Source of the DNA: Escherichia coli
Lineage (GTDB): Bacteria > Pseudomonadota > Gammaproteobacteria > Enterobacterales > Enterobacteriaceae
Reading direction: 5' to 3' (one strand)
Assembly (NCBI RefSeq): GCF_030013595.1
Contig: NZ_CP122768.1
Length of the DNA stretch: 64,000 nt
Part shown: positions 27,741-34,033 of the stretch, one piece after another
How positions within the stretch are numbered: position 1 is the first letter of the stretch
How the letters are laid out: every line of letters starts with the position of its first letter
Notes under the pieces: model-generated
What the model was told of the DNA's origin: nothing
The model's database searches: none
What the model saw: the letters and a program-made list of their open reading frames with translations, nothing else
Translations under genes and position numbers: made by a program

Positions 27741-28507
27741 TGAGCAATTTATTAGGCCCCCGTGACGCCAACGGCATTCCGGTCCCGATGACGGTGGATG
27801 AATCCATCGCCAGCATGAAGGCGTCGTTACTGAAAAAAATCAAACGTTCTGCCTACGTTTACCGCGTGGACTGCGGCGGCTGCAACGGCTGCGAAATCGA
27901 AATTTTCGCCACGCTTTCGCCGCTGTTTGATGCAGAACGCTTCGGCATTAAAGTCGTTCCTTCACCGCGTCATGCGGATATTTTACTGTTTACCGGCGCG
28001 GTCACCCGTGCAATGCGATCCCCTGCGCTGCGTGCGTGGCAGTCCGCGCCGGACCCGAAAATTTGTATCTCCTACGGTGCCTGCGGTAACAGCGGCGGGA
28101 TCTTCCACGATCTCTACTGCGTGTGGGGCGGTACGGATAAAATCGTCCCGGTAGATGTCTACATCCCTGGCTGCCCGCCAACGCCTGCCGCTACGCTATA
28201 CGGCTTTGCAATGGCGCTCGGCCTGCTGGAGCAGAAAATTCACGCCCGTGGGCCGGGTGAGCAGGATGAACAACCGGCAGAAATTCTGCATGGCGATATG
28301 GTGCAGCCGCTGCGCGTGAAAGTGGATCGCGAAGCACGCCGCCTGGCGGGTTATCGTTACGGTCGTCAGATTGCCGATGATTACCTTACACAGTTAGGGC
28401 AGGGCGAAGAACAGGTTGCACGCTGGCTGGAAGCGGAAAACGATCCGCGTCTGAACGAGATTGTCAGCCATCTGAATCATGTTGTTGAAGAGGCGCGTAT
28501 CCGATGA
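27740..28507 (+). CDS. hycG: Hydrogenase 3 small subunit HycG
   Basis: 255-aa [19 protein letters not shown]... Confidence 0.94.
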
Positions 28508-28914
28508 GTGAAAAGGTGGTGTTCAGTCAACTGAGCCGTAAATTTATTGATGAGAACGATGCCACGCCCGCCGAGGCGCAGCAGGTGGTCTATTACAGCC
28601 TGGCGATTGGTCACCACCTTGGGGTTATCGATTGCCTGGAAGCGGCGCTCACCTGTCCGTGGGATGAATATCTGGCATGGATTGCCACTCTGGAGGCGGG
28701 CAGCGAAGCCCGCCGCAAAATGGAAGGCGTGCCGAAATATGGTGAGATTGTCATCGACATTAACCATGTGCCGATGCTGGCCAACGCATTCGATAAAGCC
28801 CGGGCAGCGCAAACTTCGCAGCAGAAGGAATGGAGTACAATGCTGTTAAGTATGCTGCATGATATTCATCAGGAAAACGCCATCTATTTGATGGTGAGGA
28901 GATTGCGTGACTGA
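28504..28914 (+). CDS. hycH: Formate hydrogenlyase maturation protein HycH
   Basis: 136-aa ORF; 4-bp overlap with hycG. Confidence 0.92.
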
Positions 28915-29377
28915 CGTTTTACTCTGTGTTGGCAATAGCATGATGGGCGATGATGGCGCAGGCCCGCTACTGGCGGAAAAGTGCGCCGCCGCGCCGAAAG
29001 GTCACTGGGTGGTGATTGACGGCGGTAGTGCACCGGAAAACGACATTGTCGCTATTCGCGAACTGCGCCCGACACGACTGCTGATTGTCGACGCCACGGA
29101 TATGGGGCTAAACCCCGGCGAGATCCGCATCATCGATCCGGATGATATCGCCGAGATGTTTATGATGACTACCCATAACATGCCGTTGAACTACCTTATC
29201 GACCAGTTAAAAGAAGACATTGGCGAAGTGATTTTCCTCGGCATCCAGCCGGATATCGTCGGCTTTTACTACCCGATGACCCAGCCGATTAAAGATGCGG
29301 TAGAAACCGTTTATCAACGACTGGAAGGCTGGGAAGGGAATGGCGGATTCGCGCAGTTAGCGGTGGAAGAAGAGTAG
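28907..29377 (+). CDS. hycI: Hydrogenase 3 maturation endopeptidase HycI
   Basis: 156-aa [23 protein letters not shown]... Confidence 0.93.
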   Translation: MTDVLLCVGNSMMGDDGAGPLLAEKCAAAPKGHWVVIDGGSAPENDIVAIRELRPTRLLIVDATDMGLNPGEIRIIDPDDIAEMFMMTTHNMPLNYLIDQLKEDIGEVIFLGIQPDIVGFYYPMTQPIKDAVETVYQRLEGWEGNGGFAQLAVEEE

Positions 29378-29401
29378 TTTTTCAGTAAGGAATTCAGGGG
29401 A

Positions 29402-30175
29402 TTGAACATCAGAACAGGGATGTGCGCTTTTTTATTGAGCTTAGTGCTGCCTGCACAGGCCACCAGCTTTACCGAATATCTGCCGATGAGTGACAGCGAA
29501 TACGCGCAAAAGCGGGCGCTGAAACCTCTCCTGACCATGCCTTATGATGCCGAGCAAAACTGGCATTTTAGAAAAGTCGGCGTTGCTGGCGTGACGCTTG
29601 AAAAGATGCCAAATGATGATAGTGAATGGCAATTGAACGGTAAAGATCGCGCCGGTAAATCCTGGTCTGTGCCTGTGGGGGTGCTGCAAAATATGGCGGG
29701 TAATGCGCAACTTTACCGTGCCGATCTTGATCGTAACGGCATTCAGGATCTAGTTATCTGGCGGGGTATTTCAGGAAATGGTCTGGCACCTAACGCGTTT
29801 TTGATTCTGATGACCTTTAATCAGCAAGGTCGCCCGTGTGTTTTTCAGTCCGATGGTTTTTATACCGCAAGTGAAACTGGCATTGATGATTTGCTGGATT
29901 TACAAAGGAATGGCCACACGCAATTGCTGGATATGCAGTTTGATTCCGGTTACTGGATAACCAGTCTGTATCAGGTAAAAGACGCCAAATGGCAGCGTGT
30001 TCACGGCTGGTTTGGCAAGTTAAGCTATCCCGCGCTCACGCGTTTTACTTATACCCCCAACCGTAAACTCGTCCTCAAACCCATCGCCGGGCGCGACCCG
30101 CAATCGGAAGATCTGGCGCTGACGCAGCGTTGCTTGATAAAGGGGGATGTGCTTTATGGGGTGAATCAGAACTGA
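29402..30175 (+). CDS. Uncharacterised predicted secreted protein (~257 aa) with N-terminal signal peptide and two Asp-rich D-x-D/Q-x-N-G loops
   Basis: n-region with Arg, hydrophobic core CAFLLSLVL, AQA|TS cleavage site; motifs ADLDRNGIQDLVIW and LDLQRNGHTQLLD; start ambiguous between TTG 29402 and ATG 29420; only 24 bp after the hycI stop with no terminator. Confidence 0.6.
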   Translation: MNIRTGMCAFLLSLVLPAQATSFTEYLPMSDSEYAQKRALKPLLTMPYDAEQNWHFRKVGVAGVTLEKMPNDDSEWQLNGKDRAGKSWSVPVGVLQNMAGNAQLYRADLDRNGIQDLVIWRGISGNGLAPNAFLILMTFNQQGRPCVFQSDGFYTASETGIDDLLDLQRNGHTQLLDMQFDSGYWITSLYQVKDAKWQRVHGWFGKLSYPALTRFTYTPNRKLVLKPIAGRDPQSEDLALTQRCLIKGDVLYGVNQN

Positions 30176-30237
30176 CTTTTTGCAGAGTGGCTATGTGGAT
30201 TTTGGGGGTAATTATATAGCGTACAAGTGTTTACATA

Positions 30238-30266
30238 TTGTGAACTTTGATTTGATGAGCTATAGT
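30238..30266 (+). promoter_or_regulatory. Candidate sigma-70 promoter for the HigBA-like pair (-35 ttgtga, 17-bp spacer, -10 tatagt)
   Basis: Hexamers in an AT-rich spacer ~70 bp upstream of the toxin ATG. Confidence 0.4.
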
Positions 30267-30336
30267 TTCCGAACACATAAGGATAGAACTCGCAGATGTG
30301 GCTGTTTACTTACTATAAGGAAGTTAAAACTTAAAA

Positions 30337-30648
30337 ATGCACATCATTTCTAAAGCGCCATTTGAAGAGTGTGCGCGCAAATATCCTAACGACGCTCTGG
30401 CTCTACACTCATTGTATCGGGTTATTAAGGAAACGGATTTTTCTACACCAGAAGAAATGCGAACGGCGTTTCCCAACCTCGACAATTTTAGATATCGCAA
30501 CAAATGGTACGTTCTGGATGTCGGCGGGAACAATCTTAGGGTTATTGCCTACATAAACTTTGTTAATAAGCGGTTCTTTGTGAAGCACATAACGAATCAC
30601 GCAGAGTATGACAAACTGACACGTTACTACAGAGAGAACAAAGAATGA
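30337..30648 (+). CDS. HigB-family type II toxin (RelE/ParE-fold mRNA interferase), 103 aa
   Basis: MHIISKAPFEECARKYP...FPNLDNFRYRNKWYVLDVGGNNLRVIAYI... resembles HigB/YgjN-type toxins; toxin gene precedes the antitoxin with a 4-bp ATGA overlap. Confidence 0.8.
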   Translation: MHIISKAPFEECARKYPNDALALHSLYRVIKETDFSTPEEMRTAFPNLDNFRYRNKWYVLDVGGNNLRVIAYINFVNKRFFVKHITNHAEYDKLTRYYRENKE

Positions 30649-31064
30649 CTGCTAATGCTGCACGCGCTGTTAAAGCAACAAGAGAACTGGTCAATGCAGT
30701 CCCCTTTCTGGGAGGTAGTGACTCAGAAGATGATTATCGTGAAGCACTGGAACTGGTCGAATATTTGATTGAAGAAGATGACACCAATCCACTTATCGAC
30801 TTTCTGGCGAGCCGCATTGCAGAGTATGAAAGCAACAACGAAAAGTTTGCAGAGTTCGACAAAGCCGTTGCTGCAATGCCGGTTGGCGTGGCGTTACTTC
30901 GTACGCTGATTGATCAACATAATCTGACCTACGCGGATTTGAAGAACGAAATCGGCTCTAAATCCCTGGTCAGTCAGATTTTGTCTGGGCAACGATCCCT
31001 GACGATATCCCACATTAAGGCACTTTCAGCCCGATTTGGTGTTAAGCCGGAATGGTTTCTTTGA
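30645..31064 (+). CDS. HigA-family antitoxin (XRE-type HTH at the C-terminus), 139 aa
   Basis: ...GSKSLVSQILSGQRSLTISHIKALSARFGV... HTH segment; translationally coupled to the upstream toxin. Confidence 0.8.
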   Translation: MTANAARAVKATRELVNAVPFLGGSDSEDDYREALELVEYLIEEDDTNPLIDFLASRIAEYESNNEKFAEFDKAVAAMPVGVALLRTLIDQHNLTYADLKNEIGSKSLVSQILSGQRSLTISHIKALSARFGVKPEWFL

Positions 31065-31090
31065 TTTTGACTGATGCCAAACCCAAGATT

Positions 31091-31120
31091 GCCCGATGCG
31101 CAACGCTTATCGGGCTTTCT
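31091..31120. terminator. Bidirectional hairpin terminator between the HigA-like gene and convergent ascB
   Basis: Stem gcccgat/atcgggc (31091-31115) followed by tttctt; A-rich on the opposite side. Confidence 0.6.
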
Positions 31121-31142
31121 TGGTTCGTGCGACGGTAGTTAC

Positions 31143-34033
<2,891 letters not shown>

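Follow-up and report, generated by a model that had tools for sequence, protein, structure and literature searches.

The 257-aa open reading frame (ORF) located directly downstream of hycI in the analyzed window, a stretch of 64,000 nucleotides of Escherichia coli DNA, is on balance best explained as an ancestral, decaying gene that would be transcribed by read-through from the hyc operon and would encode an exported partial-propeller protein with a Ca2+-type loop and a binding or inhibitor role. That the ORF genuinely codes for a protein follows from purifying selection, orthologues at the same site and a confident AF2 model (pLDDT 93.4, pTM 0.89). For all pairs across Escherichia, Salmonella and Klebsiella, dN/dS values of 0.10–0.28 were obtained, and this range also applied to pairs of E. 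coli with Salmonella and Klebsiella at dS above 1.3. The values were 4–10 times that of hycI. Within the present allele, the central segment listed in Table 1 showed dS values of 0.67–0.81 versus all other Escherichia alleles, compared with 0.02–0.26 for its flanks. Judged from these features and those described below, the ORF product is very probably real, exported and FG-GAP-like. The same protein (99–100% identity), encoded at the same locus behind hycI, is represented by WP_064225927.1 and WP_001026446.1, both RefSeq 'hypothetical protein' entries, and by B7LED0 of E. coli 55989. A literature search on the locus, its accessions and the region downstream of hycI retrieved no relevant publication.

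Table 1. Features of the hycI–higBA region; positions refer to the 64,000-nt window.
Feature	Position	Strand	Basis
hycI, final gene of the hyc operon in K-12	28907..29377	+	ORF list; PGAP on a 100%-identical record ('hydrogenase maturation peptidase HycI')
hycI-ORF junction, 24 nt, purine runs AAGGA and GGGGA, without terminator	29378..29401	+	Sequence, terminator scan, RNA fold
Gene for exported FG-GAP-like protein, 257 aa, TTG start (likely)	29402..30175	+	ORF list, PGAP, dN/dS, AF2
Sec-type signal peptide MNIRTGMCAFLLSLVLPAQA, predicted cleavage before Thr21	29402..29461	+	Hydropathy, -3/-1 rule by inspection
9-bp direct repeat GGGATGTGC, copy 1, spanning ATG 29420	29417..29425	+	Sequence
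Divergent central segment of this allele, codons 58–165 of the 251-aa form	29591..29914	+	dS
Loop 1 DLDRNGIQD, putative FG-GAP/integrin-type Ca2+-binding loop (D1, D3, N5, G6, D9)	29723..29749	+	Conservation, integrin alignment
Loop 2 DLQRNGHTQ, degenerate copy of loop 1, Gln at positions 3 and 9	29897..29923	+	Family comparison
9-bp direct repeat GGGATGTGC, copy 2, near ORF end	30144..30152	+	Sequence; K-12 scar alignment
higB-family toxin gene	30337..30648	+	PGAP annotation; PADLOC PD-Lambda-2_A, E 1.9e-15
HTH antitoxin gene (HigA-like)	30645..31064	+	PGAP; PADLOC PD-Lambda-2_B, N-terminal part only; PHROG transcriptional regulator
Strong hairpin followed by U-rich tract, REP-like	31082..31125	+	RNA fold -30.6 kcal/mol, z -2.9

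Start codon assignments by PGAP varied between records, some using ATG 29420, which yields the 251-aa form (WP_064225927.1), and others an upstream start. This split reflects the ambiguity between TTG 29402 and ATG 29420 that had been pointed out previously, and a well-spaced Shine-Dalgarno sequence is absent before both codons. At the position of the TTG, an Escherichia clade carries ATG, and Klebsiella, Phytobacter and Salmonella carry GTG; this comparison with relatives favors TTG 29402 as the likely start. The resulting N-terminus, MNIRTGMCAFLLSLVLPAQA followed by TS, features one n-region arginine, a hydrophobic core of 12 residues (mean Kyte-Doolittle value of 2.86 over nine residues) and A-Q-A at positions -3 to -1, as determined by inspection. 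Furthermore, signal-peptide-like N-termini were present in 82 of the 87 family members, and the near-identical B7LED0 (99%) is named 'Periplasmic or exported protein' in UniProt. Anatomy, homologues and database name are therefore in line with the exported product and the AQA/TS cleavage site proposed in the earlier note. The protein would follow the Sec route, be cleaved between AQA and T and be released into the periplasm as a mature form of approximately 237 aa. Interpretation as a membrane protein was rejected because the protein contains no second hydrophobic segment, and interpretation as a lipoprotein because no lipobox precedes Cys8.

The product was previously considered to fit no named family, and database searches agree: the E. 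coli protein gave no Pfam match even at E≤10 and none in NCBIfam, PADLOC or PHROGs. Rfam searches of 28800–31300 at E≤1 were likewise negative. Among the 87 homologues, Pfam FG-GAP_3 matched six at E≤1e-3 and 35 at E≤0.1, and Pfam FG-GAP matched one and 12 at the same thresholds, respectively; homologues in AFDB carry UniProt names such as 'VCBS repeat-containing protein' and 'FG-GAP repeat'. The wider, unnamed family comprises 255 clusters at E≤1e-3, mostly of 310–390 aa, and a profile search of a 5.8-billion-protein set yielded no relatives beyond those from the single-sequence search. Its typical member is an exported protein of about 340 aa from soil bacteria with an extra small C-terminal beta domain, which is also seen in the model of the full-length family form (pLDDT 90.1). 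All seven short enteric members, but none of the long ones, contain a Cys140/Cys238 pair that probably forms a periplasmic disulfide. The enteric branch has lost the C-terminal beta domain and acquired this cysteine pair.

Both Asp/Asn-Gly loops that had been noted as calcium-type are present; the second one, however, is degenerate in E. coli. Loop 1 fits the pattern D-x-[DN]-x-[DN]-G-x-x-D completely and is followed by a hydrophobic strand, its ligand positions being conserved in 83–86 of the 87 family members, whereas loop 2 agrees at positions 1, 5 and 6 only. Family-wide, loop 2 carries D/N at position 3 in 67/87 and E/D at position 9 in 63/87 members; both positions are Q in the enteric clade, in which the loop has lost two acidic ligands. 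Compared with FG-GAP/VCBS repeats (PF01839, PF13517) such as those of integrin alpha and the Psathyrella velutina lectin, loop 1 conforms to the hairpin-loop pattern D-x-D-x-[DN]-G-x-x-D, while loop 2 lacks two ligands and the E. coli protein remains under every Pfam threshold. In the PDB, the family profile aligned to the Ca2+ loops of integrin alpha-V at sub-threshold level (whole-sequence E 0.02–0.4), and the sequence-profile search returned nothing beyond these matches. Loop 1, with every side-chain ligand of an integrin-type Ca2+ site, probably binds calcium in a structural role. The mature protein is predicted to be all-beta, with a domain that resembles part of a beta-propeller and is organized around two hairpin loops of the FG-GAP/VCBS type; it may serve as a calcium-stabilized periplasmic binding module. 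Since this domain of roughly 230 aa contains only two loops, and not seven repeats, it does not close into a propeller of seven blades.

The number of loops also bears on the question of whether the product is a calcium-dependent lectin-like or adhesion module, binding peptidoglycan or another glycan instead of inhibiting an enzyme. Conservation of the Ca2+ loop is consistent with such a role, as is the wide occurrence of the family in soil Acidobacteria as stand-alone secreted proteins with no enzyme partner. Lectin and integrin sites, however, require the closed seven-blade propeller, which is impossible for the ORF product alone. Moreover, no sugar-binding motif was identified, and the matches were weak, just like those to inhibitors; this role is considered rather unlikely.

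In the earlier note, the ORF was described as appended to the hyc operon. Comparison of the loci corrects this wording: synteny, the scar in K-12 and genome counts indicate that the ORF is, with high probability, ancestral at this site and a decaying accessory gene. Salmonella shows the order hycI-ORF-hydN with a gap of 26 nt, the 24-nt junction is kept in Escherichia species (E. whittamii, E. albertii and a cryptic clade), and Phytobacter features the order hycI-ORF-ascB. In Klebsiella spallanzanii, symE lies on the opposite strand between hycI and the ORF. Between E. coli and Salmonella, dS of the ORF (1.3–1.6) is close to that of hycI (1.2–1.6). In K-12, the alignment revealed that the sequence following hycI is fused at the 9-bp repeat to the last codons of the ORF. 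A recent insertion of the ORF beside hyc is contradicted by synteny, dS and this scar. The plasmid search yielded only two records, both of chromosome size, and the ORF is therefore not plasmid-borne.

Based on megablast searches of 5426 complete E. coli genomes, at least 80% of the ORF is present in 1462 genomes (27%), and approximately 837 (15%) contain a stub consisting of only its first ~182 nt; no megablast match to the ORF was obtained for the remaining genomes. Copies that are frameshifted or internally stopped exist as well, and the copy in E. albertii NBRC 107761 is split. The ORF would accordingly have long been established at the hyc 3' end in Escherichia, Salmonella and their relatives; it is dispensable and has repeatedly been deleted or inactivated. 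As it is missing from about 73% of the E. coli genomes, any function should be conditional or weak. A decaying ORF with frameshifted or absent orthologues had been named beforehand as a refuting observation for the earlier proposal: such copies were indeed found, alongside dN/dS values indicative of purifying selection.

The same data are relevant to the view that the ORF is a decaying relic without present function in E. coli, open only for lack of time to break. Deletion, truncation to a stub or disruption in most genomes would be expected of a relic, and the missing C-terminal domain of the wider family, the degenerate loop 2 and a dN/dS far above that of hycI point in the same direction. 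A dN/dS of 0.10–0.28 over dS values above 1 is, however, not expected from neutral decay. Moreover, the short form and its cysteine pair are conserved in Escherichia, Salmonella, Klebsiella and Phytobacter, full-length database clusters comprise 1120, 1238, 208 and 425 members versus tens in truncated ones, and the short form folds confidently by itself in AF2. Complete loss of function is therefore considered improbable.

Regarding transcription, hycI ends at 29377 and the ORF starts at 29402, leaving a gap of 24 nt. The earlier statement that the ORF lies 24 bp past the hycI stop with no terminator in between was borne out by a consensus scan, which found no terminator-like site on the plus strand in 28400–31300, and by folding of the junction RNA, which was no stronger than for shuffled sequence (z -0.21). 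A promoter-like site on the plus strand was likewise absent within 28400–29400. The hairpin and U-rich tract located past higA (Table 1) are the first strong ones 3' of hycI on the plus strand, and in K-12 the same element lies directly 3' of the deletion scar; any read-through transcript from hyc likely ends at this hairpin. The higB toxin gene between the ORF and this element is a variable neighbor and does not belong to the protein family of the ORF. As neither a promoter nor a terminator belonging to the ORF itself is visible, read-through from hyc is the most likely way of its transcription, and co-transcription, as suggested by the short gap and the lack of promoter- and terminator-like sites, is assumed with reasonable though not high confidence. 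Read-through would originate from the FhlA/sigma-54-dependent hyc promoter and take place under anaerobic, formate-rich conditions.

Proximity to hycI suggests that the ORF product could be a periplasmic accessory of formate hydrogenlyase (FHL) or [NiFe]-hydrogenase, co-expressed with hyc and acting on hydrogenase-related envelope processes. Adjacency to hycI is indeed tight and conserved (24–26 nt) in Escherichia species and Salmonella. In Phytobacter, hycI-ORF adjoins hyp, and none of hycE, hycF, hycG and hycH is encoded within 5 kb. Furthermore, a 39%-identical homologue in Thiolinea disciformis is located 94 bp downstream of hypF-hypD-hypE. Gene neighborhoods were analyzed for seven homologues individually, for 15 loci from genome contigs and for 44 loci from metagenome contigs. 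Across 56 non-enteric loci (411 kb of flanks), Hyc/Hyp homologues were found near family members at a single locus, that of Thiolinea, which argues against a link to hydrogenases. Neighbor clustering by blastp and phmmer revealed no conserved partner gene across these loci but only local synteny among close relatives, and NCBIfam assigned unrelated functions or no match to 10 immediate neighbors of homologues. A component of the hyc system should be present wherever the enzyme is active; active FHL was defined in K-12, which holds only the scar, and roughly 73% of the complete E. coli genomes lack an intact copy. Moreover, hydrogenase 3 and HycI work on the cytoplasmic side, whereas the ORF product is predicted to be exported, and in K. 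spallanzanii symE separates the ORF from hycI. The accessory role is consequently very unlikely, and the ORF is placed outside the hydrogenase-3 machinery, with probably no relevance to hydrogenase 3. Very improbable, too, is the reading that the position beside genes for [NiFe]-hydrogenase maturation, seen in two lineages far apart (hycI in Escherichia, Salmonella and Phytobacter; hypE in Thiolinea), is functional, which would make the hyc-expressed Ca2+-loop protein an unrecognized periplasmic accessory of H2/formate metabolism.

For the exported Ca2+-loop protein, an inhibitor or binding role in the periplasm is proposed tentatively, by analogy to known systems. The structurally nearest small bacterial proteins are PliI, X-Tfi XAC2610 and Tsi1, although the resemblance is weak. 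These three have a topology of the beta-propeller type in common and act by loop insertion (PMC10933484). By the same principle, a surface loop of the ORF product would enter an incoming peptidoglycan hydrolase and block it. Periplasmic export is a common trait of the three proteins, and the ORF product features a signal peptide predicted by inspection. Identity to PliI-Ah (PDB 3OD9), a periplasmic I-type lysozyme inhibitor, amounts to 11–17%; the ORF product is twice as long, and Pfam PliI (PF16743) did not match the E. coli protein and matched one of the 87 homologues at E 0.027. X-Tfi XAC2610 (PDB 4QTQ) and Tsi1 (3VPJ) are immunity proteins against T4SS/T6SS peptidoglycan hydrolases and are encoded beside their effectors, whereas the neighbors of the ORF are hycI and higBA, with no hydrolase or effector gene beside it. 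X-Tfi furthermore is a lipoprotein, unlike the lipobox-free ORF product. The inhibitor reading is weakened since immunity proteins normally adjoin their effector, which is absent here, and no partner was found in the 56 non-enteric loci. A weak match was also recorded for CarG of Pectobacterium (PDB 4O7J), a carbapenem intrinsic-resistance protein; no car genes are located near the ORF.

The hyc operon is among the most thoroughly studied of E. coli, and the frequently occurring 'hypothetical protein' encoded at its end was overlooked because K-12 deleted the gene. The protein family is broad and yet has no Pfam or NCBIfam model. In case the resemblance to PliI, X-Tfi and Tsi1 is not functional, the ORF would be an ordinary decaying accessory gene. 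If, on the other hand, the resemblance is functional, the family would constitute a new branch of periplasmic hydrolase inhibitors, which gut enterobacteria would turn on during anaerobic, fermentative growth.

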